Assembly: GCA_963693365.1 (NCBI GenBank)
Contig: CAVNZM010000008.1
Location: 6,086,830-6,150,829 of the forward strand
Direction: 5' to 3'
Length of the DNA: 64,000 bases
Origin: Amoebidium appalachense
Taxonomy: Eukaryota > Protista > Ichthyosporea
The notes under the pieces are model-generated. The model did no database searches and was not told where the DNA came from. It saw only the letters and a program-made list of their open reading frames with translations. Shown here one piece after another: positions 1-24,506 of this stretch (position 1 is the first letter of the stretch; each line of letters opens with the position of its first letter). Position numbers and translations under genes: made by a program.

Positions 1-261
1 CACAACACAATCTACAGATGTACTCGCTCGCGACTATTGGCGAGCCATCCTTTTGAGAACAAAACTAGGCCATTTTGAAATAAAGGAAAGACAACGAGTG
101 AGGCTAGCCAATCACGCTACCTCTCAGATAAACAGAGGAGAGCAAACAGAAATAAAATACAATAAGTTCTTATCAGGCAAGAGAGCCAGGTGTGCACAGA
201 TCTTCAGATATCTGTGCCCACAGAAACAAGGGAGAGAGAGATAGGGGGGGGGGGGGGGGGG

Positions 262-301
<40 letters not shown>

Positions 302-393
302 ACAAAGGAGGAAAGCAGACACGAATACAAACAAGCTAGGACACATACATACTTCAAGGCTCTTGCTGTCATACATGGTGACGTATTCCAACA
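1..393 (-). mobile_element. Partial LTR of the same copia family, inverted and cut by the window start
   Basis: Reverse complement of the first ~390 bp of the LTRs at 1893 and 8035. On the minus strand it starts TGTTGGAATACG at 393 and is flanked by AGCAC (394-398). Confidence 0.95.
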
Positions 394-1892: not shown

Positions 1893-1985
1893 TGTTGGAA
1901 TACGTCACCATGTATGACAGCAAGAGCCTTGAAGTATGTATGTGTCCTAGCTTGTTTGTATTCGTGTCTGCTTTCCTCCTTTGTG

Positions 1986-2016
<31 letters not shown>

Positions 2017-2763
2017 CCCCCCCCCCCCCCCCCGTATCTCTCTCTCCCTTGTTTCTGTGGGCACAGATATCTGAAGATCCGTGCACACCTGGCTCTCTTG
2101 CCTGATAAGAACTTATTGTATTTTATTTCTGTTTGCTCTCCTCTGTTTATCTGAGAGGTAGCGTGATTGGCTAGCCTCACTCGTTGTCTTTCCTTTATTT
2201 CAAAATGGCCTAGTTTTGTTCTCAAAAGGATGGCTCGCAAATAGTCGCGAGCGAGTACATCTGTAGATTGTGTTGTGCATTCCTGTCTGTTAATATATGT
2301 GTGTTGTGATTGGACAATAGATATATATGGAATTCGGTTTATTGCAAAGTGTCTTCACTTTGAGAGTGTCGACTTTTAGGAAATATATGTATTTAAATAA
2401 GTTTCTTTATAGAGACGAACATAAATATATATGTGAGCTAATAGTGACTAGATGTATAATTACTTAATTTATTTAAGTAAGAGTTTCTACACTTTAGTTT
2501 AATCGGAAGTTGGAATGCGTATGCTCTGTCGGAATGTGTTTTTCTATCTTCTGATAGAACCGATTGGTTCTCCCTCTTTAGTTGTGATAAGGTGATAAGT
2601 CGCAAGTACAAAAGGAACCGAGAGCACAATAAAGATTCAGTTGTTGTTTGAAATCTTTTCAATGTCTCGTGAACAACTCCGATTGCCCTCTCATTAATGT
2701 GTAAGTTGTGTTTTACATGACACCTCTGTGCACTCTGCTCCCTTAGACCCGTACAAAACAACA
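1893..2763 (+). repeat. 5' LTR (871 bp)
   Basis: TGTTGG...CAACA. Nearly identical to 8035-8935 and contains an internal (TC)n-Cn tract. Confidence 0.95.
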
Positions 2764-2778
2764 GGTTATGGGCCCAGT
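2764..2778 (+). promoter_or_regulatory. Primer-binding site GGTTATGGGCCCAGT (half tRNA-iMet type)
   Basis: Directly follows the LTR. Matches the Drosophila copia PBS, which is complementary to the anticodon-arm region of initiator tRNA-Met. Confidence 0.9.
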
Positions 2779-2881
2779 TTCGCACGCTCTCGCAACACAT
2801 ACTCTCGCTGCAATCCAAAATATTCAAATTTGAATACCGATCTGATTCCTCTCTCACGCATCATCTGACTGATTGATCACC

Positions 2882-5494
2882 ATGTCGGAGAAACCTGCGT
2901 ATCTCAACCTCACCCCCTGGAAAGGGGATGACACCACGGACAAGAAGTCCGGCAAACGTCTCACCTATTATGAGTGGGAACCCGTCATCTTCAGGTACCT
3001 ACGTACCACCACCGCGGCCAAGTTAGTGCCCGTCATCAAGGCCCCCGAGTGGGTCGACCCTTCCGACGAGAATGAGTGGCACGGCTATGACACTGAGGAG
3101 GCCTACACCGAGGCTTCCAACCTCCTTGAACAGATGTTTACTCAACTCGTCTCCAATGATGAGCTGTATAACTCTGGTCAAATCCACGATGATGTGTCAC
3201 CTGCCCAAGCTTTCCACAACCTCCGTATGACCTATGCGGCTGAACGTGAAGATCGTGCTCGTCAAATCCTCCTCGACTACCATGAGCTTGAACTCAAAGA
3301 CTTCAAGACCGTCACGGCCTACCTAACCATGGCACGCCGTCTGTGCACTACCCTGCACATCCTCGAAGAGCCCATTCCTCACAAGACTATGGTTGATAAC
3401 TTCTTCATCCACCTCAAGAAGAACCGTAAGTTAGTTTGTACCGACATCCAGGCCATGATTGCCGACTACTTCCGTCGTACCATTAACTACGAGACCTACA
3501 ACCGTCTAATCAGTGACATCAGAGCTGCAGAGATCCGTGAAGGTCTCATCGACTCTGGGTCCGGGTCCTCCTCCACCGTCCGAACAGCACGTGCCCTGCA
3601 AAGCCGTGTACTCACCAAGGACGACCTCAGACACCGGATCCCCCGACGTGACAGCTCCGTCTCCCGTCACCCCCGCGGTCGTCCCACCGATCGATCCCCC
3701 TCAGTTGACCGTGATTACTCACGGTCCCGTTCCCCCGGCTATCGTTCCCGGTCACCCTACCCCCCACGTAAAGGGGGTAACCGTCATTCCCAGCCACCCC
3801 GAGCCAAGACCACTGGCTCCCTCGACTGTGCCTACTGTCACGAAGACCATCATGTCACACAGTGTGACAAACCTGGCTGCTCAATTGCCCGTCGCCACCG
3901 TGCCAACACCAAGTCTGGAAAAGAGGTGCATTTTGCCCTCGTGTCCACCACGGCCTCCCTACCCATGGACCCCTGCTGGGACTCGGCTTCAAACGTCCAC
4001 GTGTGCCCAGTAAAAGAGTACTTCTCTACTCTTGAGCCCGGGCCATGCCCCCCGACTGACGTCCACGGCCTCGGCATCGTCACTGCACATCACCGTGGTG
4101 TCATCAACCTGGCCGTCACCTACAACGGAGTAACATCAGTACTGAGCCTCAACACCCTCTATGTACCCGACTCCCCAGCCTTCCTGATATCACCCTCAAT
4201 GGCCTCCAAGTCGGGTCTCCTTGCCCACCTCGATGATGAGGATGCATTCCCATCATACCTCTACACTCGTGGTGGCAACATCGTGTGTTCCCTCACAGGC
4301 ACAGATGGACTGTACTTCATCACTGACTATGAGATACGTCCCTCCATCCCTCGGACCGTCACTGCTCTGGTAGCCAACGTCAAGGTCAACAATGATCCTC
4401 AGCTCTGGCACCACCGTCTCGGTCATCGTGCCCTGTCCACCCTCACCAAGATGGTGAGAGGTGACCTCGTGACAGGCCTCCCCTCATCCCTCTCAGTGGC
4501 TGACACCACTGACTGCTTCGGTTGTGTCTCCGGCAAGACCACCAAGGCCCCATTCTCCGGCACCAGAACCCAGTGCCCCTTCCCCGGTGCCAAGTGGCAC
4601 ATGGACTTCTTCGAGCCTCCCTGTGCCTCCTATGGTGGCTACAAGGTGGCCCTCGTGTGTACCTGTGATCATGCCTCCGGCTACACCATCGTGTACCTCC
4701 TCCGTGATCGATCCGAAACTCTCGAATACGTCAAGGCCCTGGTTGAGACTACTGACAAGCAACCCGACAAGGTGGTGACCCACTTCCGTTCAGACTCTGG
4801 GTCCGAGTTCACCTCCCACGCTATGGAGCAGTACTGCCAGTCCAAGGGCATCATTCAGGAATTTGCCCCGGTTGACTGCCCCCAACTCAACGGCTTCGTT
4901 GAACGTAAGATGAGGGATCTGCAGGAGATCATTCGGTGCTTCCTTCATCAGGACAAGGCCGACTCCCTTTCCCCCAAGCTGTGGGGAGCTGCTCTCAAGC
5001 ATGCTGCCTACATCATCAACGTGACCCCGGCCAGAGCTGCCAATGGCCGTACACCGTTTGAAATTTTCTACGGTGTCAAGCCTGACCTCTCCCACCTGCA
5101 CGTGTTCGGCTGCCCAGCCTATGTACACGTCCCTGCATCCAAACGAGACAAGTTGGCCTCTACCGTCAAACTCGGCACCTACGTGGGCTGGGATATCACC
5201 AACAAAGCCCACAAGATCATGAATCTACGTGGCAACACGGTCAACCTCTACCGCGATGTCGTCTTCGACGAATCACAATTCACCACGGCATCCAATCAGA
5301 TTTCTGTGCAGGCCACCAATCAGACGACCTCAATCGATTCATCCCTGCATTCCAGAAATTCCAATTCCGATGACGATGAAATTCCGTCGGTGATTATCCG
5401 TCGTTCCCCCCGTCGTGTACCTGCCCCCGTGGCTCCACCCACCCCCCCCCCCCACCGGCCAGCAACCCCTGCTGCCGGCCCCTGCCGTCAATGA
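2882..5494 (+). CDS. Copia gag-protease-integrase (5' part of the polyprotein)
   Basis: Zn knuckle CAYCHEDHHVTQC, protease WDSASNVH, GAG-pre-integrase LWHHRLGH...CFGC, integrase WHMD...FRSDSGSEF...LNGFVERK, and LHVFGCPAYV. Joins the next ORF across a C12 run at 5442-5453. Confidence 0.95.
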   Translation: MSEKPAYLNLTPWKGDDTTDKKSGKRLTYYEWEPVIFRYLRTTTAAKLVPVIKAPEWVDPSDENEWHGYDTEEAYTEASNLLEQMFTQLVSNDELYNSGQIHDDVSPAQAFHNLRMTYAAEREDRARQILLDYHELELKDFKTVTAYLTMARRLCTTLHILEEPIPHKTMVDNFFIHLKKNRKLVCTDIQAMIADYFRRTINYETYNRLISDIRAAEIREGLIDSGSGSSSTVRTARALQSRVLTKDDLRHRIPRRDSSVSRHPRGRPTDRSPSVDRDYSRSRSPGYRSRSPYPPRKGGNRHSQPPRAKTTGSLDCAYCHEDHHVTQCDKPGCSIARRHRANTKSGKEVHFALVSTTASLPMDPCWDSASNVHVCPVKEYFSTLEPGPCPPTDVHGLGIVTAHHRGVINLAVTYNGVTSVLSLNTLYVPDSPAFLISPSMASKSGLLAHLDDEDAFPSYLYTRGGNIVCSLTGTDGLYFITDYEIRPSIPRTVTALVANVKVNNDPQLWHHRLGHRALSTLTKMVRGDLVTGLPSSLSVADTTDCFGCVSGKTTKAPFSGTRTQCPFPGAKWHMDFFEPPCASYGGYKVALVCTCDHASGYTIVYLLRDRSETLEYVKALVETTDKQPDKVVTHFRSDSGSEFTSHAMEQYCQSKGIIQEFAPVDCPQLNGFVERKMRDLQEIIRCFLHQDKADSLSPKLWGAALKHAAYIINVTPARAANGRTPFEIFYGVKPDLSHLHVFGCPAYVHVPASKRDKLASTVKLGTYVGWDITNKAHKIMNLRGNTVNLYRDVVFDESQFTTASNQISVQATNQTTSIDSSLHSRNSNSDDDEIPSVIIRRSPRRVPAPVAPPTPPPHRPATPAAGPCRQ

Positions 5495-7313
5495 CCACGT
5501 ACCTGGTCATCTCACCCCGGTTCGTCCTGGGTCTCCGGAGTTCCACTCGGCCCCGTCCAGCCCCGTGTTATCCAACTCCCCCCTCAACACGGCACCCATC
5601 CCTGGCTTCCAGGCCCCCATCCCCGACCACCGAGTGTCTGTCCCAGACACCCCCCCGGCCCCTGAGCCCCTCCGTACCGTCCCCCGTCGTTCCTCCCGTC
5701 TCTCCTCCCGGCCTGCCATGGCTATGGTGAGCATCTCCCGACCCAGCCTTGATGTGTCTCAGCTGCCCCGGTCAATTCAGAAGCTGTGCTGTGGCACCAA
5801 GGGTGATGAAGTGGTAACTGCCCTCACTGCCGAGTACAAGGCTTTCATCGACAAGGACATCTTCGACGTAGTTGAGCCCCCCTCCGATGCCAACATCATC
5901 CGATTCAAGTGGATTGTCACGGAGAAGGTCCTCAACTCTGCTGGTGACACCAAGATCAAGGGTCGTGGTGTGGCCAAGGGTTTCACCCAAGTCTACGGTG
6001 TTGACTACGGTGAAAACTCTTCCCCCGTCGTCATGTCCTCCTCCGTCCGTGCCCTGCTTGCCCTCGGTGTGCAACAGGACCACGAGATCCATCAACTCGA
6101 CATCAGCACGGCCTTCCTCAACAGCCCCCTCGACGAGACTTTGTACATGGAGCAACCTCCTGGTTTTATCCTCCCTGGCAATGAACACAAAGTCTGGAAA
6201 CTCAAGAAGGCCCTCTACGGACTCAAGCAGGCATCCCTGGCATGGTACGAGTTCTTCAACTCTATTCTCATTGCCCACGGCCTCACCCGTCTCCGTTCCG
6301 ATCCGTGTGTCTACTTCCGTCAGTTCCCCAACGGGCACATCATCCGTTCGGGCAACTACGTTGATGATGCCATCATCACCTGCACACGGAACTCCACCAT
6401 CATGCAGGGGCTTGTTCGTCACATCACGAAGTCTGCCGAGTGCAAGGTCGGTCTGCCAGACATCTTCCTCGGCACCCAACTGCTGTACACCCGTGACTCC
6501 CTCAAGCTGCTGCAGTCTTCCTACATCAAGGACATCATCACCGACTTCAACCTGGTCGATGCCAAGCCTAAGGCCACCCCTATCCCCGTGGGCACCATCA
6601 TCAACGAGACCTCCCTCTCATCCCTGCCCACCACCGTCCCCTACCGTGAACTCCTCGGCCGTCTGCTGTGGGTTGCTCGGTGCTCCCGGCCTGACATCTC
6701 GTATGCCATTGGCTACCTCGGCCGATTCAGCTCCAAGCCCACCAAGACTGCCTGGGAGCTTCTCCTCCGTGTCGTTCGTTACCTGCTCGGCACCATCAAC
6801 CTCGGCCTCTACTACAAGAAGAAAGCCCCCAACAGCAAGGTGCCCATCCTTGAGTGCTACTCGGATTCTGACTTTGCTGGTTGCCCCACCACCCGTCGTT
6901 CCACGTCTGGGTACGTCATCCTCCTCGAAGGCTCCCCCGTCACCTACCACTCCAAGCTGCAGACGATCACTGCAACTTCCACGTGTGAGGCCGAGCTCCT
7001 GGCCCTCAATGCTGCCGTGCAAGATGTTGTCTGGCACCGTGATCTACTCAAGGAGCTGGGCTACCCCATGACCGAGCCCACCCCCGTGTACTGTGACAAT
7101 CAGTCCACCATTGCTCTGGTCCACTCCAACACCATCAAGCACCGGACCAAGCACATTGCCGTTCGTTACTTCAACACCAAGGACTACATCAACAGTGGGG
7201 ACGTCACTGTCACCTACATCGACACCAAGAAGAACCTGGCCGACATCTTCACCAAGCCTCTGGCTGGTCCGGCCCACGACACACACCGTGCCAACCTCAG
7301 TCTCCGTGACTGA
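5415..7313 (+). CDS. Copia reverse transcriptase-RNase H (3' part of the polyprotein)
   Basis: KGRGVAKGFTQVYGVDY, QLDISTAFLN, LKKALYGLKQAS, YVDD, YSDSDFAG, STCEAE, CDNQS, RTKHIAVRY, NLADIFTK. Confidence 0.95.
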   Translation: MYLPPWLHPPPPPTGQQPLLPAPAVNDHVPGHLTPVRPGSPEFHSAPSSPVLSNSPLNTAPIPGFQAPIPDHRVSVPDTPPAPEPLRTVPRRSSRLSSRPAMAMVSISRPSLDVSQLPRSIQKLCCGTKGDEVVTALTAEYKAFIDKDIFDVVEPPSDANIIRFKWIVTEKVLNSAGDTKIKGRGVAKGFTQVYGVDYGENSSPVVMSSSVRALLALGVQQDHEIHQLDISTAFLNSPLDETLYMEQPPGFILPGNEHKVWKLKKALYGLKQASLAWYEFFNSILIAHGLTRLRSDPCVYFRQFPNGHIIRSGNYVDDAIITCTRNSTIMQGLVRHITKSAECKVGLPDIFLGTQLLYTRDSLKLLQSSYIKDIITDFNLVDAKPKATPIPVGTIINETSLSSLPTTVPYRELLGRLLWVARCSRPDISYAIGYLGRFSSKPTKTAWELLLRVVRYLLGTINLGLYYKKKAPNSKVPILECYSDSDFAGCPTTRRSTSGYVILLEGSPVTYHSKLQTITATSTCEAELLALNAAVQDVVWHRDLLKELGYPMTEPTPVYCDNQSTIALVHSNTIKHRTKHIAVRYFNTKDYINSGDVTVTYIDTKKNLADIFTKPLAGPAHDTHRANLSLRD

Positions 7314-8023
7314 CCCGTGCACTGGTGTTCATCATCGAGTGGTTTCTGAGTAGGTTGGGGCCCTGGACAGCAGTTGACACACCTACGGTGATCAAGATGC
7401 CTCCCAACGAAAGTCTACTACTCCTCATCGTTTCTCTTCATCAGTGGGGACTCAGTCTTACATCGTCATATGTGTGCATCTTCAGTGGGGAATTATTCTC
7501 CCCCATCCGTCATTTATTTATATTCATATCCCACCATATATATTGGTTTTCTTCTATATTCGACTTATATATATGTCGAACTGGGATGGCGTCCCAGTAT
7601 AAATAATTATCTATAGCCATGACGTGCTGGTTGACTGCCAGTCTAAACCTAGTCCACGGGATGCACCTTCCCCGTGTCTTAACTGGTTGACCACCAGTCT
7701 ATAAATCAGTCCACAAGATGTTCATGTCTTGTGTTTACCTGGGTGGTCCCCAGTATAAACCATTAGCCACCAACACGTCACACATACACTAGTGTTTCCT
7801 ATATATATATATATATATCGCTGATAACCACCATAATTTCTTATTTCGAGTCTTCAGAGGCAACCGTCGTTGTGTGCCTCTTCAGTTTTGATTCTCTCCT
7901 TCCCACCTCAAGGATCTTCGGTTTGCATCCTCGAGTGGGGAAACTTGAGTGTGACGGCCCCTCCTGTGTTTGGACCTCATCTACCGTCACATCAACAGAC
8001 ACGAGAACACAAACTTCAACCCC

Positions 8024-8034
8024 TTGAGTGGGGA
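8024..8034 (+). promoter_or_regulatory. Polypurine tract TTGAGTGGGGA
   Basis: Directly precedes the TG of the 3' LTR and resembles typical copia PPTs. Confidence 0.8.
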
Positions 8035-8126
8035 TGTTGGAATATGTCACCATGTATGACAGCAAGAGCCTTGAAGTATGTATGTGTCCTAGCTTGTTTG
8101 TATTCGTGTCTGCTTTCCTCCTTTGT

Positions 8127-8164
<38 letters not shown>

Positions 8165-8935
8165 CCCCCCCCCCCCCCCCGTATCTCTCTCTCCCTTGTT
8201 TCTGTGGGCACAGATATCTGAAGATCTGTGCACACCTGGCTCTCTTGCCTGATAAGAACTTATTGTATTTTATTTCTGTTTGCTCTCCTCTGTTTATCTG
8301 AGAGGTAGCGTGATTGGCTAGCCTCACTCGTTGTCTTTCCTTTATTTCAAAATGGCCTAGTTTTGTTCTCAAAAGGATGGCTCGCCAATAGTCGCGAGCG
8401 AGTACATCTGTAGATTGTGTTGTGCATTCCTGTCTGTTAATATATGTGTGTTGTGATTGGACAATAGATATATATGTGTGATTGGACAATAGATATATAT
8501 GGAATTCGGTTTATTGCAAAGTGTCTTCACTTTGAGAGTGTCGACTTTTAGGAAATATATGTATTTAAATAAGTTTCTTTATAGAGACGATCATAAATAT
8601 ATATGTGAGCTAATAGTGACTAGATGTATAATTACTTAATTTATTTAAGTAAGAGTTTCTACACTTTAGTTTAATCGGAAGTTGGAATGCGTATGCTCTG
8701 TCGGAATGTGTTTTTCTATCTTCTGATAGAACCGATTGGTTCTCCCTCTTTAGTTGTGATAAGGTGATAAGTCGCAAGTACAAAAGGAACCGAGAGCACA
8801 ATAAAGATTCAGTTGTTGTTTGAAATCTTTTCAATGTCTCGTGAACAACTCCGATTGCCCTCTCATTAATGTGTAAGTCGTGTTTTACATGACACCTCTG
8901 TGCACTCTGCTCCCTTAGACCCGTACAAAACAACA
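8035..8935 (+). repeat. 3' LTR (901 bp)
   Basis: TGTTGG...CAACA followed by AGCAC (8936-8940). Has a ~25-bp internal duplication near 8475-8500 that the 5' LTR lacks. Confidence 0.95.
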
Positions 8936-9118
8936 AGCACACCGTGCACATGCATAAAGCTGACACTCAGATATACAAGCAGTAACACTATGCCAAACCG
9001 TATAAGCCACCGAGGCTCAATGCTGTATGCCTCACATGGAATGACATTAGCATAGCTGCATCACGAAACAAGTCTCCCTCGCATGGCCTCCGACTTACGC
9101 TTTCCCCCTATATCTCAG

Positions 9119-11229
9119 GGCCCCCTGACTGGACCAAGATGGTCGTGCTTCAGTACTTCACCACCCCCTATCTCACGTGGAAGCGCTACAACGTCACCTG
9201 GAAAGTCCCTGCCGGCATCTATCGTGCCCGATTGGGCTTCAAGGCCATTGTCGGCAGTGATGCGAGCGGCACAATGGGCAACCTAATTGATGATGTGATT
9301 TTGACCCCTGCGCGCTGCGTACCGGGTAAACCCCCCCCCTTCCCCCCAACCCCCAACCCCCAACCCCAGCCCCACCCATTACCCTCCTCCCCCTCTCCTC
9401 CAGTCCATACCCCCCCCTCCTCCCCCTCCCCTCTTCGCCCTTCCCCGGAAACACACACACACACACACACACAACACACACATGGCATTGCGGGCGCACA
9501 CACCATATCTAAACACTTAGTGCTCAGACCCAGGGATCTGGATTGATTCAACTGAGATGTAATAATCAAGTGAAAACAGGCCGTGAGATTGATCCACATT
9601 AGTAATCACTTTTGTGCACAACCGATGGCAGTGCTTTGTCTTTAAATATCTGCATGTGCCCATCTAAGGTTTTGTGTAGGCTTGCGCTGTGAAGGATAGC
9701 CTACGCTGTCCAAAACAAGCGATAAAATGTATGTGGTGGCGATCGTGATGCCGAAAACTTACGGAATGATTGGGGCATCCTTTTTCCTTGGGATGCAGGA
9801 CAGTATCGTACTATGTTATGGTTATAAATTGGCTGATTAGTGATCAAGGAAAGAACGAGAAATAATGAGAAATCCACCTGTAAATGAAAATGGAAAGTCG
9901 GGGGGCCATTCTTTGCCTACGACGGATAGAAATGTGGTGGCATTGAAATTTAAGCACGAAAATCTGGAACGCATAGCCAATGGCCGTTGCCAACCTTACG
10001 CACAAAAGCTTTGGGTTTAGCGTCACTCAATACACACCTAGGCTAAGATCGAATCTGCCGCACGCCGGTGATCCGATCGCGACAGGGAAGGAGGGGAACA
10101 AATGAATGTTGAAAAACATAATTTTTTTTGGTTAAACATGGTGGATTCAGGGTACACAGACCAAAAGGGTTGTTTGTTAATGCTAACATTCTTGCATGCA
10201 GGTGCCAACGAGTGTGCGCTGGGAGCGCACAAATGCTCTGCAACAGCAACTTGCTTCGACACAGCCAGTTCGTACTTGTGCCAGTGCAACGGTGGCTACG
10301 TCGGGGACGGCGTCAACTGTGACGGTAAGCCAGCGCCAAGAATGACTGCCAGTTGACCTTTAACGTGTCTTTGTGGTGCCAACGCAGACCTAGGTGACCT
10401 CACAGTAAGAGAGAAAGGATACTGCATGTTTAGAAAAAACATTTACAATGTTCTCATTGACTCAGTGTGATGTTATGTTGCTAGAACACCCATGCACCAG
10501 TCACGGGAGAAAAGATGCAGTTTTTAACGGAGAGAAGATTTCACGGAGAAAAATGGACACCTTTGCGTACTTTACAACGGCTGCTAGATGCAGTTATACG
10601 CACTTCGAATACTTTAAGACCCACACACATTACTTATAATGAAAACTCACTCTGGCAATTCTCTGTTTTACCCGCAGCTCTTCCCGCCGGTGTGTTGCCT
10701 CAGTGCACCGACCCAACATACAACCTCATCAACGGTGGATTTGAGGACCCACCCATGTTTCCGGGCACAACAAGTATACTTCCCGACGCCTCCTTCAATG
10801 GCTGGCGAAGCACAGAGAAGAACATTGAAGTCTGGTCTAACGGCTACCGGGAACTCTCCACTAACACAACGGAAGGAAACCAGCTGGCAGAGGTTCAGGC
10901 CTACCAGTTCAGCATGCTCTACCAGGAGATCAGCGTGATTCCAGGCGATGTCATGTCCATTGAGTTCTCGCACAAGGGGAGACTTGTGGCAGACACGATG
11001 ACCGTGAGCGTTGGTAGGATCCCCTGTTCATAGAAGATAGAATGTCGCGCTGAGTGGCATAGTTGCACTATCCCCCACCAGTACTCTACAATCGGTTCAG
11101 TAATTGCATAACCATGTGTTTTGTTGAGTCTCGGTCTGCTTGCCAAAAGGTTACAAGGGTGAAATATTTCAATGTTTTCTTTCATTGTTTTTTTTTTTTT
11201 TTTTCTTTCCCTCCCATTTATTTTATTGA

Positions 11230-11277
<48 letters not shown>

Positions 11278-11485
11278 AAGGGGGGGGGGGGGGGGGGGGG
11301 GGGTGAGGCTGTGCTCTCCCTCTTTGATCGGTATTTTGGTTGTGAGAAACCCCTATATGGCCCTGTCAGTGATTTGCACGCCAAACAGTTAACACTGAAC
11401 ATGCTTGTGTGGGACTTCCCCACGTTCACCCCCCACCCCAATCCCCCCCCCCCCCCCCCTCCTCCTCCTCCCCCCCCCCAACTTG

Positions 11486-11537
<52 letters not shown>

Positions 11538-13303
11538 CCCATTCAAAAGCCTTTCTCCCATCGGGACCTTCACCACTTCTCCCAGTGCCTGGCAGCGCTA
11601 CAATGCCACATGGACTGTGCCTGCCGGGGTCTTCCGTGCATGTGTTGCGTTCAAGAGCGTGGCAACCCCTGCTATCCCTAACCCGGACACAGGAAATCTC
11701 ATTGACGATGTCGTGTTTTCTCCTGTCCGCTGCAAACTACGTACGTCCTCCCTTGCTTCCCCTTCCCTTCCCGGCCCTCCCTACTACCCTCCTTGTATCA
11801 CACGTAAACACTCTACCTGCCAAGATGGATATGTTTAGAAGTCTGGCCTCTCTCCCCCTCGTCGGTACATAGTGACTCATTCACATGTTCTTTTTTTTGT
11901 TTATCTTTCACTCCTCTGAATTATGCACTAGCTCTTTTAGTGGTAGTAGCATAGGCAATCAAAGCCTCACTCCCCCCCTCCTCCCTCCCCCCCCCTCCGG
12001 CTGCAACATCTCAGAATTCTCTGGGTTTATATTTGCTCAGCTCAAATCCCTGCCCCACCCCCCACGTGATTGCTTGATGTATAGCGAATGCACAACAACT
12101 TCCTTTTTCTTGTTGGCAATTTCAGTGGTTGGTGATTTCTGGATTGTTTGATTCATCATTTGTGTTGGTCATCTACTGAAGCTTCAGCTTAGAAGTTTTG
12201 CTATGCCTACCTTCAATCTTTCTCCACCAGGACCCCTCTCCTCTTCAATTCTTTCACTCCCTCCATTGCCACTCCCCCCCCCCCCCCCCCCCCAAAAAAA
12301 AAAAAAAAAAAAAAAAAGAAGAAGAAGCAACCACCACCACTACTACCCACACACCCAACTATCCACGTTGGCACAAAAAAATTAGAACAGCACCACACAA
12401 GTCTTTCACAAATTACATTAAACATCTGGCACGCACAGTAACGCTGCACTATACCCACCATCGCCAACCTGCACCTGCTTTCACTCTCTGATTAATACTG
12501 ACCAAAATGCACAGCGGCCGACTCCTGCAGTGCAAATACACACAACTGCCATGCGCAAGCAAGCTGCCTTTCAACGTCGGACTCATTCACGTGCACGTGC
12601 AACGGCGGATACGTCGGCGATGGCGTCACCTGTCAGGGTAAGAGCCAGTATTGACCCACCTACATGTCGCAATGCATTTTGGGTTTCCAAAGTTTGGAGG
12701 TTGCTCAATAATGTGATTATGAAAGCTATTAATGCCACGGTAGTCAAAAAAGACATACATGGCTACCCAAGATTATTGTGTTCTTCCAGGTATATTTTCA
12801 TTCACTGATTGCCAGTATGTTGTGAAATATAAGAGTAAATTTGGGAAGATGTGCGCAAGATGTAGCCCCAGCTGCTTCACATTTTTGTTCACATTAGGTC
12901 TGAGAAGGGATTCGTACATCTTTTCTTCATAGCACTCATACTCACAATTGCCTTTAAACCTCCACAGCGCTGGCACCCAACACCTTCCCATCCTGCACTG
13001 ACAACGCCTATAACATTCTTAACGGTGGCTTCGAGAGCCCCATCATGCAGAACGGGACAGTTATGATTGAGGACCAACGCTTTATTCCCTACTGGCGCAG
13101 CACGGAGTCCAACATTGAGATGTGGAGCAGCGTGTTCCTTAACACAACTGCCCCCGAGGGACGGCAGTTTGCTGAGATCCAGGCCTACCAGTACAGCATG
13201 CTCTATCAGGACATCAGCGTGATCCCTGGGGACACCCTCTACTTTGCCTTTTCCCACAAGGGCCGCAATGGCAACGACACTTTGGCTGTTACCATTGGTG
13301 ATG

Positions 13304-13349
<46 letters not shown>

Positions 13350-15333
13350 GGCCCCCCTCTCCCCTTCCCCCTTCCCCTTTCCCCCTTCCAATCGGCATGT
13401 GTGATTGTAACTAACTTAGTCTATTCAGCCTGTGACAGTCCAACCTATTCTTTCATTAATACCGTTTAACGTTAACGTATGTGCAACCCCCTCCCCCCCT
13501 CTAGTACATCTTTGTGGCTTTTCAGTGTTTCTATTCCGAACCGCTCCCCCCCCCCCCCTCCCCCCCCCCATTTTTTTTGCAAAGCTTTACTTGTCCCTTG
13601 CCTCCCAACTTAGTCTGTCATCGCCACTCATGTCTCCCTCGCCAAATGCAGGCCCAGCCACCAACATGGTTGAGCTTGGCCGGTTCACGACATCCCCGGC
13701 TGCATGGCGGCGCTACAACGTCACATGGACCGTCCCTGCTGATGTCTATCGTGCACGAGTCGGTTTCAAGGCCATTCCAAGGCTGGGCTTCTCAGCCAGT
13801 ATTGGAAACTTTATCGATGATATTGTGCTGACACCTGCTCGCTGTTTGCCTGGTGCGTATCCCATGCCATCATGATGCATGTTTGGTTCAACAGCTTGGT
13901 ATGTACCACTTTCTTCCTGTTGACTGATAATTCATTGTTTCGTGTAATGTATCAGAAAGAAACCCTCTGCAGTTGCTTGGCAATCTATAATGAATTCAAG
14001 TTGGGCCCGCAGACAGATCCTGACGTGATCGGAGCTGGCACCTTTTTTGTGCTTCTCACGTTCCCGAAGCTAGATCATGTAGCATCTGTATCAGAATTCA
14101 GTCCAAAGCAATTGAGATTTTACCGTGCATGTGGGGCTGATTAGCTAATTTGATTGCCTGATCCAGCTTCGAGGTCGTGTATTCTGTAAACTCCATCAGT
14201 CATAATATGTGGACTCTATGATGAGTCAAAAATGATGGCCCCATGATTTTGCTAACCCATACGTCACCGCAGGTGCGGATGAGTGCTTGCTGGGAACCCA
14301 TAAATGCGCCTCCACTGCCTCGTGTGTTGACACGGCCAGTTCCTACACGTGTCAGTGCAACGGCGGCCATGTGGGCGACGGCACCACGTGCACAGGTATG
14401 TTTCTTTGGTGTTTCAGGTTGTTCTGGATATGTTTGGTATTAGGGTCTGAGGCAGCATTTCCCTGCTTACTGTGGATAATGAAGGTGGCAGGATGAAAGT
14501 TTATGACGTCAATGATCATGCCGCTGCTGGAGTTCGGCTTTTATTGCCGTTCTCTCAGTTTAATAAATGACGTGCCGAGAAAGCATCGTACATTACCCTA
14601 CTGCAGTGATTTTTTTATTTTTGGGGGGGGGGAGGGAGAGGAGGGGGGGGGTTGTTCGGGGAGGGCCCCAGGCTGGTCCCATTCAGACCCCAAAGGTTGC
14701 CTTTGTCGTTCAGTCTACTCTCACCCCCTCTTTATATCCCCTTTCCCCTCCCTTTTTCCTTCTTCACAAACCCAAAAGCAAACCATCCTTCATCCAATCT
14801 TTACCGTGGCTTCTCGATGTGCTGACACAAAGTTGTCGACCGCAGCCCTAGGGCCCAACGAGGTGCCACCCTGCAATGTCACCTACTACAGCATCTCCAA
14901 TGGCGGTTTCGAGTTCCCCGTCATCAACAACAACTCGGTTTCCATCTTCGACGACAAGACAGTCACCAGCTGGCGCAGCACAGAGTCCAAGGTGGAGCTG
15001 TGGTCTACCTCATTTCTCAACACAAACGCACCTGAAGGTCGGCAGTTTGCTGAGATCCAGGCGTACCAGTACAGCATGCTCTATCAAGACATCAGCGTGT
15101 TGCCTGGAGACACTTTGTTGTTTTCGTTTGCTCACAAGGGCCGTAATGGGAATGATACGTTGAATGTGACGATTGGTAAGTTGCTATGACATATCCCTTT
15201 AAAAGAGTCCGATTTTTGATATGGCAAGAACGGATTAGAAATTCGAAAGTCACTCGTTTCAATGAACACACATCTAGCCACAAACACACCTAAACACACA
15301 CACATACACACACACACACGACACACACACACA

Positions 15334-15372
<39 letters not shown>

Positions 15373-18300
15373 GGTTGTGCTAGGCCGTCTCCGGCACTGG
15401 TCTATTCACTCGGAAGCTGTTTGTTGGTTCTATTATTACAGACCAAACTTGTACAGGTCAGCATCATTGAATCACACAAACAATCCCAGGCTGACATATA
15501 CCCACACAAACGCACAGGTGCGGTCACCAACATGAGCACCTTGGGCCAGTCGCACACATCGATTCAGTCGCACACATCGATTCAGTCGCACACATCGATT
15601 CAGTCGCACACATCGATTCAGTCGCACACATCGATTCAGTCGCACACATCGATTCAGTCGCACACATCGATTCAAATGTCGCTCTTTATTATCTGCTAAT
15701 AAATAGTATCCTTCGCGCATCCACCCCTAAACCAGGCCATCCGTGGCCCTAAGGGCCGGGGAACACCCCCATCCATGTCATGGCACATGCCTATAATCGT
15801 TTCAGAACCTCTTTCAAAGTTCCATCTACACCCATCACACATGTGCGACCATTAAAACGTCCAGCAGATACACCTACCACAGATGCACAACCAGAAAAAC
15901 ATCGCCTTAGACTAAGCGCAACACCTATTTACAATACACTACCCATTCAGAATAACACCACACCACTCCGTAGAAACACAATAACAACCATGCCGAAACT
16001 TTCGGTTGATACAGTACTGGCAGAACTTGCCCTCGTTAAGAAACAGCTAAATGAGCTGTTACCACTCAAGAACATGATAGAAAAACTCCAAACAGAAAAT
16101 ACCCAACTCAAGCTCACCATTGATTCACTCACAGCCCAGCTAAACATTAGTGGATCGCAAAACCCCAAAACTCATGAGCAAACATCTCGCGACGGAGACA
16201 TTTCCACCCCAACACAAAACAACACAGGACCGGAAGCACAGCTCCCGGCAGAGTTCCTAGAATATGCGAACTCTCGTAAAACACCCGAGCTCCGCCAAAT
16301 TGCCAAGGAAACATATGCCAGCATTCTTGCAGGCAACGAGTACCGCCGCAACTCCCCTCCCAAACCGCCGGCTAAGGGGAACACCCAAGCAAACGGTAAC
16401 ATCAACATCCCACCCAAATACGAGAGGGTGTATTTCAAAGTCAAGCACGGCAGACGCCCACACAGGGCCATCTGGTCCATCTTCAAGGCTCTCGGCTTCC
16501 GGTGCTCTCGCATCCTTTGTCTGTCCTTCATTGGATACGATGTGCTGGAAGTAGCAGTACGGGGCGACTATAACCGTGCGTTCATCCGTGACGCGACAAA
16601 GGGGTGTGGAAGCTTCTTCACCCACCTCCCAAGCTACGACCCATGCGCGCCGGAAAACATTCAGAAAGCAGACAAAGAACGTAAAGTGTCTGCTAAGAAT
16701 GCGTGCGCCACACGTTGTCGTGTACGCATCAGCAAGGCAAAAGAGTTCCTCGCAAAGTTGGAAAACGATGCTACGAGCGTGATAGACACGGACACGAAGG
16801 AACCAATGTTTTCTGGTGAGAAACTGCTCGAGCGCAAACGCCGATGCGAGATGGAAATCGAGCTCTTCTGCGAACTGTTCGCGCTGGCGGAAGGTCGTGC
16901 ATACGACCCCGTAAGCGACAAGTGGGAACCAACCCCACAGGTGTCGGACCAAACCGATGCCTAATTTATCCTTCTTCTTCTGGAATGCTCGGACACTGGG
17001 CCCCCAAAAGGGCCTCCCCCCCGGGACACTCGACGATAAAATCAGCTACATACAACAACAGACAAACAACCACACGTTTACAGTGATTTGCGAAACACAG
17101 TTTAAAAACCACCACAAATTCAACTCTACATTGGTCGACACATCCACACACCCCGGTTACGCGAAAAACCGAGGCATTATTGTACTTGCCGCACCACACG
17201 TGAGAGTGAAGTGCAAACCGGTAGCAAAAACGGAATTCTCGGTTTCTATAGAGTTTCTTTCTAATGTTTTTTACTTTTGTATATTACCCACCATCTATGT
17301 CGGTTGTCGAATTGACTCACGAGTTGTCACAGTTACCAATGTCCACTGTTATTTTAGGTGATTTTAACACGCGACTCCACCACACAGACACACTGCAAGT
17401 GAGTGTCGGGTACCCATCTAAGCCCCCGGAGCGTGCTATCCCTTTGGCAAGGTATGTCCAAAGTCACACTTTGCGGTTCCCTCAAATATCCCATGCCCAC
17501 AACACCGACTGGGGAGTGGCCTTTTGGCCATCAACCATGTCAAAACTCTCTCTCCCTCCTAACCTCTCTAGGTCATCTGACCACTCTCCTATCCTTTTCC
17601 TACCTAAGATCTCCCTTGATCTGCTCCCCCCTCCCCCTCCCACCTTTCGCCTCCGTCTATCCCAGCTTAAGTCACAGTGGGGTAGAGTTGATGTATGTGT
17701 ATGCTATGCTACGAAACACCCTATATATATGCGCCTATTAGAATCTGCACAAGCCAGGCCAGATTCACATCTCGTACTAGATACATGCACTAACTTTATT
17801 GTTGATGATTTGATAGATCTCGGTGATTATGCTGGCGGTGGTAGGAAGGAATATCCCGATGCTCTCTTGTTACCAAACACCACTCCCGCTAGACTAGGTG
17901 AACCCCTGTCTCAAAAGGAAAGCTTGCGCCGGCTTGCTAGTATGAATCGATTTGGCCCCCCTGCTCGTATTATTGGTGATACCACTGGAGACCCCCTCAT
18001 AGACTCTGATAAGTATTTCTCGGAACTGTTTAAAGATAGGACCCCCGCTCAGAAACCTATTGTGTGGCCTGTAGACCCATCTATCCCCATAGAATCGATC
18101 CTCCCCTTTTTCAGTCCCGATGCCATATGGTCTGTGATATCTAGTTATAGCTCTAGTAAGTCTTGTGGACCTGATGGACTCCCTGCTGGGTTTCTTAAAA
18201 TCCTTGTTCCCTCCTACCCACAAAAGGAAAGTGATCGTGCTATTAAACCTGATCTTACTATCATGTTAAGCTCTCTCTTTTCTTGGTGTGTTAAATGTGG

Positions 18301-20156
18301 ACATGTCCCGTCATCTTGGTTAGATACCTTAGTGATCCCCATAGTTAAGAAGGACTCTGAGGGCCCCATATCATCCTTTCGCCCCATTACACTAACCCAG
18401 GTTGTTCGTAGATTCTTTGAAGCTTGCTTACTTAGGTTATTTGCACATCACCCTAGGTTTCAATCTATTCTTCACATACACCCATGCCAATCCGCTTTTC
18501 GTAAAAACAATTCATGTTATGTTCAAATAATGGCACTGCACGATTCTATGCAAGTTGGTGCACAATATGTTGGCTTTATTGATTGGAAAACTGCTTACGA
18601 TTCTGTCTCCCCTGGTCTCCTATGGGAAAAGCTTGCTGCACGGGGTGTACCACACTGCATTGGTGTTCTGTTAGAAGCACTCTTGTCTCAAACCTATGGT
18701 AGAGCTGTGGTTAATGGGCATCTTTCATATGGTTTTGCTCGTACTAGAGGTCTCTTGCAGGGTTCATTGCTTAGCCCCTTTTTGTTTAACCTATTTATAG
18801 ATGATTTGGCTGTCAAGATTTACGCCGAAAACGATGACCCTATTAATAACTTTCCGCCTGCACTTCTCTATGCTGATGATCTGTCCCTCCTTGCCCGTAC
18901 CCCTAGACGCCTGCAAAGATTGTTCGATGTAGTGTCAGAGTGGTGCAAGGCAAACCTTATGATCCTTAACATAGACAAATGTGGTGTTCTTGTACCTGAT
19001 ATAGCTAACAATTTACACACATTTACATTATCATCTAAACCTGTACCTATAGTTCCAGAATACAAATATCTTGGTGTTCCGGTTGATTCTGTTGGTGTTA
19101 TGTTTCCCCATATGGTCGAAAAGAGGGTAGAGTTGGCTCGTAAGCGGTTAGCTTTCTTCTCGGCTAATATTTTTAAAGACACACCCCTCCATCCTTCTAT
19201 TAGACTTACATTTATTCGCACTTTTGTCTTCCCGGCATGTGAATATGGTTTACCCCTTCTCGCCGCTTGGATCAAGAAAGAGAGAACTAGAGCGCTTAAA
19301 CCCTTGGCAAATTTCCTTGAAGCAGAAGTTGCCTCCTTTCTATCTAACAACTGTTGTAAACCTGGGCCTGTAACGCTCTCGATATATGGTCTGGTCCCAA
19401 TAGCTGCTAGAGTATCCTATCTCGCGCTGAAATTCAATAAGCACATAAGCCGCTTAAAGAAGTATTTGCCCTCCCACCCTCTCTTCTCTATCCGACCTGT
19501 CCCCTCCTCACCTCTCCCCTCTTTCCTCCCCTCTCTCTCCCCTTCTCCCCTGGGCACAAATACAAATAAACCCCGCAATAGTGTGTGTGTGACTTTGGAC
19601 TGCCACTTACTTATTAAACATGTACACAATCACAAGATAATCACGCAATATAACAAATGGAAAAAGATACCACACGACACTAGACCCGATGAAAGCATAC
19701 ACCTTGAAAAACTAAGCCTTATGTCTCGTTTTATATATACTGACCGCCTCAACCATATTGCCAAATATGGCACTCGCAAGTGTATAACACCTAAATACAT
19801 ATTACCTTCCTGTAGAACTGGTCTTTCTCTAGCTGATGGTATTATTGATCAATTACCACGCTTTTACTGTACACGTGCTATACAGTGGAGATCTAATAAG
19901 TATAAGGTGGCATCATTTGCATGCCCAAACAACACACACACACACCAGTTTAACCGGTCATGTATCGCCAAATGTAGTTTGATAGACCACATAATACCGC
20001 AACACACACACGTCACATTCACAACAGACACCCAGAAAGATAGCCTACCTGTAAATTACAACATCCTTGATTTTATACTAAACACGCGTAACTACGACCT
20101 GTTTATTAGATGTATTGATTGGCTTGAGAAACACATCACTACAAAATTATAGCGCA

Positions 20157-20223
<67 letters not shown>

Positions 20224-20255
20224 CCAGCTGATACCGAGTGTCCCGAGGGGAGCCC

Positions 20256-20309
<54 letters not shown>

Positions 20310-21168
20310 GGGGAACCCCAACTAATTGATTTCTCCTTGTAGTCTTTATGGTGTCTCGTAGAGAAAGTAAACCCTGATATATAGTCACCACCCGACATCT
20401 ATGTACGTGATCATGATATACCGCTGAGGGGATATTCCGAGCAAACCCCCCCCCCCCATACCTGAGACTGGTTCTCTTTGCCTCGAGTAAACAGCGTAAA
20501 CCCCTTCACCACATCACCTGCAGCCTGGCGGCGCTACAACGTCACATGGACGGCGCCTCAGGGGGTGTTCCGTGCTCGCCTGGGCTTCCAGGCCGTGCCT
20601 CCACTCGGCACTCTCCCGTCCAGCACAGGCAACCTGATTGACGATGTCAGCCTCATCCCCCTTCGCTGCATCTACGGTGAGTCCCCCAACCCTTACTCGG
20701 TTCACACAGACACTCAATTGAACCCGATGGCATTGCTGTTTCGGTGGGACACGCACAAACTAGACTGCGAACCATGGTTTGGGGCTAGAATTGTTGGCCG
20801 CAGGCACAGGTTTAGCCTATGATTGGTACATAATAGAATAATATTAAGTTAAACGCATACACACACCGTGCGACATACATTTGAAGTCCTTTCAGGCCGA
20901 AGACTTCTAATCGTCGTTGCTAACGGGATCATACCCCCCCCCCCCCCCCCAAAAAAAAAAAAAAAAAAAAAAGAAAGGAAATGAAGAAAGAGAAAGAAAG
21001 AAGAAGAAAACGGAAAAGCACTCCTCAGTGCTGCACAAGCATGTGCCCTTGCCAATATCTCCAAAATCAAATATACGACAACAAAGCATAATACTGAGGT
21101 ACATGCACGCAAACACACACACGCACACGCACACACACACACATACACACACACACGCGCGCGCGCGC

Positions 21169-21257
<89 letters not shown>

Positions 21258-21262
21258 TGACA

Positions 21263-21294
<32 letters not shown>

Positions 21295-21519: not shown

Positions 21520-21652
21520 GCTGCCAGACACTTTGGTGGCTCTTTGATTCGATTGATTTTAAGAGCCTATGGTATTGCGATTCAATCACTGGTGCCTGAA
21601 TGTTTATGTTTTGAGGCAGTCCGAGAGAAGGCGTATCTTGATAACTCCACAT

Positions 21653-22306
21653 CTATGAAAACTACTCCGGGACGTGTGTTGCCTCTAGGGGGACATCCCC
21701 TTAATCGAAAGTGAACCTGCAATTGTTGTAAACCACGGCAAGCCCCCAGTCATCAATTTATTGATCCGTGAGGTCCTTGTGCCCAAAAAATGGGGGAAGT
21801 CTTCGCCCCGTGAAAAAACAGCACGTATGTGTGGATCAATGGGGGTTGAGTGTGGGTGTAGGTGGGTGGGTGAAAAGAAAATATAGCTGTAAGGGCTGTA
21901 GGTGCTCAACACAAAAGATGTGTTTGTAGCTTACTGATCTGCTAAAAACTGTCGTGCTTATATACCTAAGCCTACCGATCCGAGCCAATCAAAATTGATC
22001 TAGTGATATGTGAAATCTGATCCGAGCCAATCAAAATCGGTCTAGTGATATGTGGAATCTGACGTTTTGATTGGCTAATAGGTGCCCGTGTGCGGGCAGC
22101 CAACCGCGAACTGCTAAAACACGAAACGAAGCCTACATGGTTATGTCGATACCGAACACCCATCCTACGTGTTTACCCAGAAAAATGTTTATGTCAATAA
22201 ATCCCACAAATAAAACCTCTATGAAAACTACTCCGGGACGTGTGTTGCCTCTAGGGGGACATCCCCTTGGACGAAAGTGAACCTGCAATGGTTGTAAACC
22301 ACGGCA
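21653..22306. repeat. Pair of ~90-bp direct repeats (split-direct-repeat-like) enclosing a 2 x 42-bp CCAAT repeat
   Basis: CTATGAAAACTACTCCGGGACG...AACCACGGCA occurs twice. GATCCGAGCCAATCAAAA occurs twice at ~21977-22060. Confidence 0.9.
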
Positions 22307-22334
22307 CGAGATTAGTATGCTTGCTCCAAAGGTT

Positions 22335-23140
22335 TCACTTAAGAATAGAGGCGAATACACGTTTGGTAGTGGCAGCAATGGAGGCCGGGCGAAGTCGAGT
22401 ATAGATCAGGAAACAGTCGGAGGACCATCTGCCGAGTTGTTTGATCCGGGAGTCGTCGACCCCGGCCTCAGCCAGGGCTGTGGCCCCCCCAATTCGGAGG
22501 CTGTGGCCGGCAAACCGGGAGGGTGAGAGGCCAGCCCGTGAGAGGAGGGCACGGAAGTCGGCAGAGAAAGCACCCTTGGTGTAGGGAATGCCACCGAGAC
22601 TGAACAGGGGGTCGTCGGGTTGACCGGACGTTGTATCCAGGAACTGCCGGAGGATATGGGGGAGAAGTGGGTGAGAGGCAGGGCAGCTAGGGTGACGTTG
22701 ACACCTCGGGCCTGTACATCCATCTTGGAGGTTGGCAGGTGGAGGGTGGCATGGGACAAAGTACCGGTGGGGGTGTAGCTGAAGGTCACGTCCTTCCGTT
22801 TAACGTGACGGGACGGGTCGAAGGAAGCCAGGGTCTTGGAGGTAAATTCCCCCGAACGGAGGAGACCACAAAAACCGACGATGAGGACCGTCCATAGCCG
22901 GAGATTGGCCGAGGAGGCCTTGGTGGGGCACTGGCCATGGAGTAGGCCGAGGTGGGAGGGCAGGAGGGGCTCCCTGGTAGATGATCGGGGCCGGATGTTG
23001 TGAGAAAGCTGCCGTCTGCCCACCCCTTGTAGGAACCAGGCCAGGGACTTGTCGTGGGGGTAGGGAGCAGGGAGGCCCATGTCGAGGTGGAGTCTGGTGA
23101 TGGCCGAATTGTAGCCGGCCAAGGAAGAGGCCTGTACCCC
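22335..23140 (-). pseudogene. Tyrosine recombinase, frameshifted near 22670 and 5'-truncated
   Basis: GFCGLLRSGEF and LPTSKMD, then in a shifted frame GHSLRIGGATALAEAG...IKQLGRWSSDCFLIYTR. This gives the R, K, HxxR, W, Y catalytic set of DIRS-type YRs. Confidence 0.9.
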
Positions 23141-24506
23141 TCGAAGGTGGCGTCGGTAGCAGGTTGTAATACTATGATGTTTACGAGGGTATCACGGTAG
23201 CCGGCACGCACAATGAACACTGTGTAGCGACGGCCAATGAAGAGCATGTCTGGAATCATTCGTCACCGAGGGTGTAGAGACGGTCACGCATGGTGCTGAT
23301 GTTGGCCGGCACCATGGTGAAGGCTGCCGTGGTCAACTCGGACTCGTCGGTACCCTCAGGTGCAGGGTCAGATGCCACCCGGGGGGGGCGGGTTGGGTGC
23401 AGGGCCGATGCTGCGGCAAGGGCTGCCATAGCCTGGGTAGCCCCGTGGGTCTGGGCCACTGACTCGGCATACGTTTTGACTTTCTCGGACACGCACACAC
23501 GGTCTTGGCGTCCACAGTAGTGCGGTACACCTTAGGGTTCGTTGTGGGTCTGAACTTGGGAGACCCCGGGGGAGTTGGTAACCCACCGGGGGCTGCCTGT
23601 GCTGCAGGGGCCGGGCCCGCATGGGCAGGGCCATGGGGGGGTGCCCGGCCTGCTTCGAGCTGCTGTAAGCGCTACTCCATTCGTTGCATGAGAAGGTCTG
23701 TTTGGTCCTGTTTGGCTTTAGATTCGGTGACTTGGGCTGTTAAGTCGGTGATTTGGGTGCGGAGAAGATCATGATGCTTCATAAGGTTCTCTACTGATTT
23801 CCCAGCTCTGTCGGGGATCAGAAGCAAAATTTCCCTCGTAATAAAACTATTAGCTGGCTGCGCGGCCGGTTGTGCCTTACTAAACCGGCCTCGGGAAAGA
23901 GAATATCCGCCCGGCTCTGTTTCGTTACCCTCCTATCCGGGGATTCCGCTTCCCGTTGACGTTTGCGGCTCGTCGGTGTCCCGGGGGGCTCCGTGGACCT
24001 GGATACCTCCTGAGAGGCCATGGATGGGTTCGTTTTGCCCTTTTAGGGGCCCAATAGAAGTGGATGGATGAACGAAGTGGATGGATGAATGGATGAACGA
24101 AGTGGATGGATGAACGTTACTACTGCCCACCCCCCCATTTCAGATTCAAAAAATGCCTTATCATACTTAGGTACTGTCAGAGTGCTAATTGCTCACTTAT
24201 TGACACTTATTATAACTTTCTGAATATGGCCTAGTTAGCATTTGAAAAAAAATCAGGGTTATCATTACTACAGTTATTGATACAAAGCATTCCGAAGAGC
24301 CGACTTCGATCGCGGCCTGACCCCTCAGGACTTGTGAATTCTCTGCATCACTCATGAGTAGCATGGCATCGATCACAGCCAGATTCACAGATCTCGGTGT
24401 TCATTATTATTATCCGTGGGCATTGCCCCCCCCCCCCCTCCTCCGAGGCTCCTCCCTGCATATATGCATATGTTACACCAGTTACGTTTACTTTATTTAC
24501 AACTTC

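Follow-up and report, generated by a model that had tools for sequence, protein, structure and literature searches.

We report that the coding DNA of a Ty1/Copia retrotransposon in the ichthyosporean Amoebidium appalachense is rich in CpG and yet almost free of the trinucleotides CGC and GCG. The element, which is flanked by long terminal repeats (LTRs), lies in a stretch of 64,000 nucleotides (assembly GCA_963693365.1, contig CAVNZM010000008.1, positions 6,086,830 to 6,150,829, forward strand), hereafter called the window, and its coding region occupies positions 2882-7313 of the window. Only 11 of the 252 CpGs in this region are found in CGC (6) or GCG (5), while the other CpG trinucleotides are abundant (CGT 114, CCG 114, TCG 70, CGG 67, CGA 65 and ACG 63). 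All 11 sites are located at or before 5253, and none of the 118 CpGs from 5260 onward belongs to this context. The same pattern had been described by eye in an earlier note on this DNA, which claimed that CGC and GCG were nearly absent from the open reading frame (ORF) and missing altogether between ~5260 and 7313; both counts bear this out.

Depletion of CGC/GCG in the coding DNA

The depletion survives control for codon and amino-acid composition, a check that the earlier note had suggested. Synonymous codons were permuted 2000 times with the protein and the codon usage kept, and the expectation was 58.0±4.8 for CGC and 31.9±3.9 for GCG (together ~90), with 0 of 2000 shuffles down to the observed 6 or 5. 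Under a first-order Markov model of 2882-7313, none of the other 62 of the 64 trinucleotides falls as far below expectation as CGC (0.10) and GCG (0.14). The total CpG number in the coding region is 251 against 328 expected from the codon shuffle, so almost the entire CpG shortfall comes from the CGC/GCG context alone.

The loss is visible both within codons and at codon junctions. Arginine is encoded by CGC 4 times and by CGT 61 times, although every other four-fold box of the element favours C. At the junctions, NCG before C is found in 0 of 83 cases, NGC before G in 0 of 28 and C before Ala in 2 of 62. G never precedes an Arg CGN codon (0 of 86), compared with 63 of 322 before other codons starting with C, and the two G-ending codons that do precede Arg both precede AGR. 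C before other G-starting codons is also mildly low (C:T 125:75 vs 538:89). The CGC/GCG loss is thus context-specific, strand-symmetric and present in all three codon phases, and is made largely by synonymous choice, in agreement with the context that is hypermethylated in this species according to the available text of PMC11244446. We regard an editing process acting on one strand, or a cause at the RNA level, as unlikely, given that the losses of CGC and GCG are about the same. One of the 11 remaining sites, at 3893, reads CGT in all four sequencing runs compared (read variants covered: 40 of 208 rows), so the CGC/GCG there looks private to this copy.

The depletion is confined to the coding DNA. 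The observed/expected ratio (O/E) of CGC/GCG under the Markov model is 0.12 for the Copia coding sequence and 0.99 for the LTR, and the LTRs and leader together retain 19 CGC/GCG CpGs. The 3' untranslated part at first appeared as strongly depleted as the coding DNA (2 of 23 CpGs, P 1e-3). After its low GpC was allowed for, O/E was 0.44 on two sites, and this part was left out of the depletion evidence because GpC is scarce in it. The word TCGCA is found four times on the plus strand of the LTR and leader (1893-2881) and is absent from the Copia coding sequence; it is possibly a promoter element that retains CGC there.

Other mobile elements, host exons and other Copia elements

For comparison within the window, we used its three mobile elements together with 1556 codons of host exons, in 32 pieces that were delimited by hand with approximate limits; more than half of these codons come from one EGF/DUF642-like repeat gene, and Pfam matched only some of the pieces. 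The second mobile element carries a frameshifted tyrosine-recombinase gene and is probably DIRS/Ngaro-like. The gene contains 2 CGC+GCG against 23.3 expected (Markov O/E 0.16), and G precedes CGN in 0 of 16 cases. The whole element (21540-24300, minus strand) is truncated, with split direct repeats at about 21650-21750 and 22225-22310 recognized by eye, and its coding part is CGC/GCG-poor and its flanks less so. Of 187 sliding windows, the 28 with the strongest depletion each overlap either the Copia element or the tyrosine-recombinase gene.

Host exons and the first ORF of a long interspersed nuclear element (LINE) had been thought to use CGC/GCG freely, which is incorrect. The host exons contain 98 such trinucleotides against 141.5 expected (O/E 0.69; 0 of 1000 shuffles), and O/E is 0.79 for the LINE ORF1. 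Nevertheless, host exons keep what the Copia element has lost: Arg CGC:CGT is 18:8 in the host against 4:61 in the element (Fisher 2e-9), and G precedes CGN in 14 of 44 cases against 0 of 86 (Fisher 5e-8). In host exons, C:T is lowest before Ala (8:38), intermediate before other codons that start with G (84:100) and highest before non-G (334:109), and this graded C>T footprint fits CGC/GCG-biased methylation in this species. The LINE ORF2, which bears the reverse transcriptase (RT), is AT-richer, with a GC content at third codon positions (GC3) of 0.40, and its non-CGC CpGs are depleted (O/E 0.68), the reverse of the Copia pattern; its endonuclease-like start sits in another frame.

We also compared 76 of 80 Copia RT regions from metagenomes, the other four having fewer than 200 stop-free codons. 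Their median CGC/GCG O/E is 0.66, and the minimum among the 41 regions with at least 15 expected is 0.48. The RT of the window element has 0 against 27 expected (z -8.1; the next most extreme is -4.2) with other CpGs at O/E 1.01, and none of the 76 regions pairs such CGC/GCG loss with normal use of other CpGs. A general bias of Copia elements was therefore rejected as the cause: five of the 76 loci (L044, L045, L054, L057 and L075) do lack CGC/GCG entirely, but their expectations are all below 10 (3-10), and these AT-rich regions show a general CpG loss in which other CpGs are low too (O/E 0.17-0.81). From the above, the depletion is a real, strong and unusually clean compositional signature common to two unrelated retroelements.

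Methylation of the Copia family

In the available text of the Amoebidium methylome study (PMC11244446), 5-methylcytosine (5mC) amounts to ~70% at CGC/GCG and ~20% at other CpGs. Young transposable elements (TEs) are methylated whatever the CG context, and active genes carry CGC/GCG methylation in the body with low promoter methylation. Silencing correlates with non-CGC/GCG methylation, CGC/GCG methylation being widespread, and reactivation is predicted by promoter methylation. For the role of the widespread CGC/GCG mark, those passages give enzyme preference alone. Non-CGC methylation also serves as the silencing readout in the accessible part of PMC12344493. On this published pattern, the motif lost from the Copia element is that of the default mark and not of the silencing mark. 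The earlier note had started from the premise that 5mC is concentrated at CGC/GCG and silences mobile DNA; the concentration stands, and silencing correlates with methylation of the other CpGs.

The Copia family is present in all four read runs compared. Run X6 contains thousands of short contigs of the family, mostly at least 95% alike, as expected of a multi-copy family. In run X20, G>A and C>T changes are over-represented and G is read as A at loose ends, which suggests a cytosine-converted library. Methylation was read from contig depths in this one run, on 9 of 57 pieces and with an 80% likeness filter that favours methylated molecules. In 2772-3042 (271 bp), four listed non-CpG G are changed to A at ~99.5% while CpG G is kept, and none is changed in the control run X16; on this single stretch, 5mC is restricted to CpG. 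At the TCGG of 2887, the G is converted in only 249 of 4042 depth units and is unchanged in X16. A contig of depth 1843 differs by exactly 7 changed non-CpG G with ACGC and TCGG kept (difference counts), and another of depth 1468 by exactly 10 changed non-CpG C with ACGG, CCGG and ACGT kept. All three CpGs spanned by the contig of depth 249 are converted. Four non-CGC CpGs and one CGC of the family are thus mostly protected in X20. These readings indicate that most Copia-family molecules are methylated at non-CGC CpGs, with a minority unmethylated near the start codon.

Escape from silencing by codon choice, the interpretation first offered for this element, is not supported in its simple form, since CGC/GCG carries the default mark, the LTR and leader keep it, and the non-CGC CpGs of the family are mostly protected.

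Deamination and probable selection in the codon record

Neither a change from CGC to CGT nor the loss of G before CGN is open to CpG deamination if the protein is to stay the same. At conserved Arg positions (shared by at least 50% of aligned homologs; 88 searched), the Copia codons are CGT 15, CGG 3, CGA 2, CGC 1 and AGG 1. CGC thus accounts for just 1 of the 21 CGN codons there (P 1e-6 given the C preference of the element itself), and G precedes none of these 21 (P 0.01). The codons before Ala point in the same direction. In host exons they end in C 3, T 21 and G 15 times against a baseline of 22, 5.7 and 12.2, so that lost C has gone to T only (G 15 vs 12.2, P 0.25). In the Copia element they end in C 1, T 22 and G 22 times against 34, 4.2 and 6.8, so that T and G have gained equally (G P 3e-6), and in the recombinase gene G is found 6 times against a baseline of 1.5. 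A pure drain of C to T predicts 6.7 G before Ala in Copia, where 22 are observed, and the log likelihood (lnL) is -61.6 for the drain and -51.9 for avoidance.

Traces of deamination are present as well. Its products are in excess over the codon shuffle (TGC 89 vs 59, GTG 96 vs 73 and CAC 132 vs 110; GCA too), G before Cys is found 13 times against 5.9, and His and Cys are slightly above the homologs with Arg slightly below. Deamination contributes to the CGC/GCG loss and falls short as the only cause, contrary to one option of the earlier note. From these codon patterns together we infer that selection among copies most likely removed CGC/GCG from the coding DNA.

Proposed mutational-target shedding and its rivals

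The loss is likely to reflect shedding of a mutational target rather than escape from silencing, and mutational load is the likeliest agent of the clearance, an identification that we hold with about even confidence. By the published figures (~70% and ~20%), the host would methylate CGC/GCG by default, which would make these sites deamination hotspots. Copies able to transpose may be in an "active gene" state, in which CGC/GCG of the body is methylated and the promoter and the other CpGs are largely unmethylated; in such copies silent CGC/GCG would drain to T. At sites where deamination changes the protein (Arg CGC and G before Arg CGN), a host gene would purge every mutant and the motif would stay. 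A transposon copy is proposed to be unselected between jumps, so that each hypermutable non-silent site would cut its odds of staying functional, and lineages using CGT, G-ending codons before Ala, or A, C or T before Arg would leave more descendants. This proposal agrees with a depletion limited to coding DNA, its repetition in the unrelated recombinase, the milder, C>T-only footprint in the host, and the apparent methylation of bulk copies at non-CGC CpGs.

Several observations weigh against mutational load. The strength of selection is assumed in this model, which contains no mutation rate or waiting time. The LINE should carry the same load, yet it retains the motif (G before CGN 9 of 55). 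Neutral CGC/GCG loss is slight or absent in host non-coding DNA, with a Markov O/E of 1.09 to 0.73 depending on masking, strict masking being biased downward. In a direct contrast of G and T before Ala, Copia and host do not differ significantly (Fisher 0.50), and the distinction drawn above rests on the baseline of each. In two of the three silent classes pure drain does as well as avoidance or better (lnL -70.2 vs -72.7 for NCG before C, and -14.3 vs -14.7 for Gly before G). Finally, highly expressed host genes may have CGT as their optimal Arg codon, and the cyclophilin gene uses CGT 3 times and CGC 0 times (a tiny sample).

The last point would equally favour a translational preference for codons or codon pairs, independent of methylation, as would the strong bias of the Copia element to C- and G-ending codons (GC3 0.70) and the confinement of the depletion to coding DNA. 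However, a triplet and its reverse complement have gone in every phase and across unrelated codon pairs, and host exons retain Arg CGC and G before CGN, which leaves this explanation scarcely credible. Deamination as the sole cause, neutral and long-term, under which amino-acid changes are tolerated and the motif is unselected, would account for the excess of deamination products, the shifts in His, Cys and Arg, and the two silent classes that fit a drain. It is already strained by the conserved Arg codons and the G before Ala, and non-coding LTR sequence, which should decay first, is not depleted; we consider it improbable. Direct avoidance of the mark refines the idea of the earlier note: methylated CGC/GCG in the body would seed all-context methylation or hamper transcription, and copies without it would stay active longer. 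It would fit the near-total loss (including classes that deamination cannot remove silently), the same loss in two unrelated elements, and the X20 contig of depth 249 that is unmethylated at all three CpGs near the start codon. In the available text of PMC11244446, however, active genes widely carry CGC/GCG methylation, TEs are methylated in any context, and it is promoter methylation that predicts reactivation, yet the LTR and leader retain CGC/GCG; the bulk of the family DNA is also protected at non-CGC CpGs in X20. We consider direct avoidance unlikely, though less so than the other rivals.

A different kind of explanation invokes sensing of self and non-self. Constitutive CGC/GCG methylation would mark host DNA as self, and free cDNA in double-stranded form might be cut or flagged where its CGC/GCG is unmethylated, much as restriction-modification works against phages. 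Both depleted elements belong to classes regarded as producing free DNA intermediates (LTR elements and, probably, tyrosine-recombinase elements), the LINE, whose copies are made in place, is spared, and the loss is strand-symmetric; moreover, the text available of PMC11244446 gives the CGC/GCG mark no function beyond enzyme preference. On the other side, the LTRs and leader belong to the cDNA and are less constrained, yet they keep their CGC/GCG CpGs; a single element of each class is seen; and the sensor or nuclease is purely hypothetical, no search for one having been made. We regard such sensing as a doubtful explanation. A broader version is very doubtful: the self mark would be the CGC/GCG methylation of the whole genome, and retroelement cDNA or incoming viral DNA with unmethylated CGC/GCG would be detected and destroyed or silenced. 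If true, it would mean a defence akin to restriction-modification in an organism closely related to animals. Recoding of their genes would have let LTR and tyrosine-recombinase elements avoid it, as phages shun restriction sites, and in-place LINEs would have had no need to recode.

Removal of ~90% of this one motif from the coding DNA of two unrelated retroelements, beyond the loss in host exons, implies that the mark costs mobile DNA something. The CGC/GCG mark is not tied to expression in Amoebidium, and its role becomes testable. CGC/GCG O/E could also act as a sequence-only marker that separates long-resident from recently arrived elements.

Organization of the element and the surrounding locus

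The coordinates of the features are listed in Table 1. The Copia LTRs are a direct pair with TG...CA ends that differ by 5 substitutions and 2 indels, and three of the five substitutions are transitions at non-CGC CpGs. The primer-binding site probably resembles the one that serves the half-tRNA-Met primer of Copia elements. The domain order is that of Copia (protease, integrase, RT), with an RVT_2-type RT. In the first ORF piece, PF13976, PF00665 and PF25597 score above the curated cut-off and PF22936 below it. The coding DNA had been described as a single ORF with its protein intact; in this assembly it consists of 2882-5494 and 5394-7313 in different frames, and the gag-pol frame is broken at a run of 12 C. 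The length of this run differs in one X20 contig, and the three other runs show no difference there; the break may be an assembly error or a private indel. Among the matches listed in the protein searches, no relative exceeds 42% identity, no named close homologue was found for the element or for a host exon, and scans of metagenomes with the element's own RT and of viral contigs gave no match.

Table 1. Features of the Copia element and of the two other mobile elements in the window.
Feature	Position (strand)	Characteristics
Ty1/Copia LTR retrotransposon	1893-8935 (+)	Identified by LTRs and Copia domain order
5' LTR	1893..2763 (+)	871 bp, TG...CA ends; 7/22 CpGs in CGC/GCG; Markov O/E 0.99
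Primer-binding site and 5' leader	2764..2881 (+)	5/6 CpGs in CGC context
ORF piece 1	2882..5494 (+)	gag, protease-like beta-barrel, GAG-pre-integrase, integrase core, SH3-like; carries all 11 CGC/GCG
12-C run with reading-frame break	~5442..5453 (+)	ORF pieces on either side in different frames
ORF piece 2	5394..7313 (+)	Linker, Copia-type RT (PF07727, E 7e-59), RNase H-type C-terminus (by eye); 0 CGC/GCG
3' untranslated part	7314..8034 (+)	Purine-rich tract at end; 2/23 CpGs in CGC/GCG
3' LTR	8035..8935 (+)	901 bp; 7/21 CpGs in CGC/GCG, no depletion
LINE ORF1 and RT-bearing ORF2	15753..20149 (+)	CGC/GCG O/E 0.79 and 0.85, mild depletion
Frameshifted tyrosine-recombinase gene (second mobile element)	22338..23191 (-)	PF00589, E 2e-7

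In a check for a 5-bp target-site duplication, the outer flanks of the Copia element were found to differ. A second LTR of the family lies inverted at 1-393 (minus strand), and its outer flank is identical to the 3' flank of the main element. The minus strand also carries a host exon (1100-1585) whose gene family has its other exons on the plus strand. This arrangement suggests that recombination between opposed LTRs inverted 394-1892, or that the segment is mis-assembled. The host gene concerned (8986-21516 on the plus strand and 1100-1585 on the minus strand) contains repeated EGF and DUF642-like modules and a C-terminal PAN domain, and is interrupted by the Copia element and the LINE. The region 24500-64000 contains intron-rich host genes, whose introns have long homopolymers and CA repeats: a cyclophilin with a signal-peptide-like N-terminus (-), a TSTD2-like gene (+), a TTLL12-like gene (-) and, named by eye, a methyltransferase-like gene (-) and a Q/P-rich gene (+).

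Comparison with known systems

The closest reference is the methylome of Amoebidium appalachense itself (Sarre et al. 2024, PMC11244446). Within its available text, the hypermethylated context is the one missing from the Copia coding DNA, and the all-context methylation of young TEs fits the Copia family in X20. Silencing is tied there to non-CGC methylation, and no sequence-level motif loss in TEs is described; the words "depleted" and "Copia" are absent from its main text. In the titles, abstracts and passages covered (outside the figures and data tables of PMC11244446), a loss of CGC/GCG from Amoebidium TEs is not reported, nor is it described in the available parts of PMC12695648 and bioRxiv 10.64898/2026.05.21.726589. 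As for Ty1/Copia elements in general, the LTRs, the integrase before the RT and the RVT_2 domain are common to the element described here, which differs from the 76 other Copia RT regions by its compositional signature.

A trinucleotide-specific CpG target that affects retrotransposon fitness is likewise known from Pucciniomycotina, where hypermutation at TpCpG resembles repeat-induced point mutation (RIP) (Horns et al. 2012, as available in PMC3318451). For Microbotryum Gypsy elements, the consulted part of a 2017 study (PMC5381629) proposes that selection may favour variants rid of target sites. That RIP-like system is directed at repeats, and its target sites are still there, 35 of them in an amplicon of 938 bp. 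In contrast, the target in the present Copia element is a genome-wide default mark, the shedding from coding DNA is ~90% complete, and the LTR and LINE are spared. Since the LTR and LINE keep the motif and lost C has given way to G as frequently as to T, RIP-like hypermutation of repeats does not describe this case. It would be a near-complete case of the target shedding so far proposed for fungal RIP-like systems.

The ONSEN Copia element of Arabidopsis, in the passages available of PMC3907296, is likewise without the symmetric methylation targets of its host, and clears CG and CHG from its LTR promoter. The element described here is the reverse of ONSEN, in that the LTR and leader keep the CpG sub-context (7 of 22 and 5 of 6 CpGs in CGC/GCG, respectively) and the coding body is cleared. 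Nor does it avoid maintenance methylation in X20, as judged from contig depths in one run of inferred library type. The present finding therefore likely extends the known shedding of methylation targets to a new host mark and to the coding body of an element.

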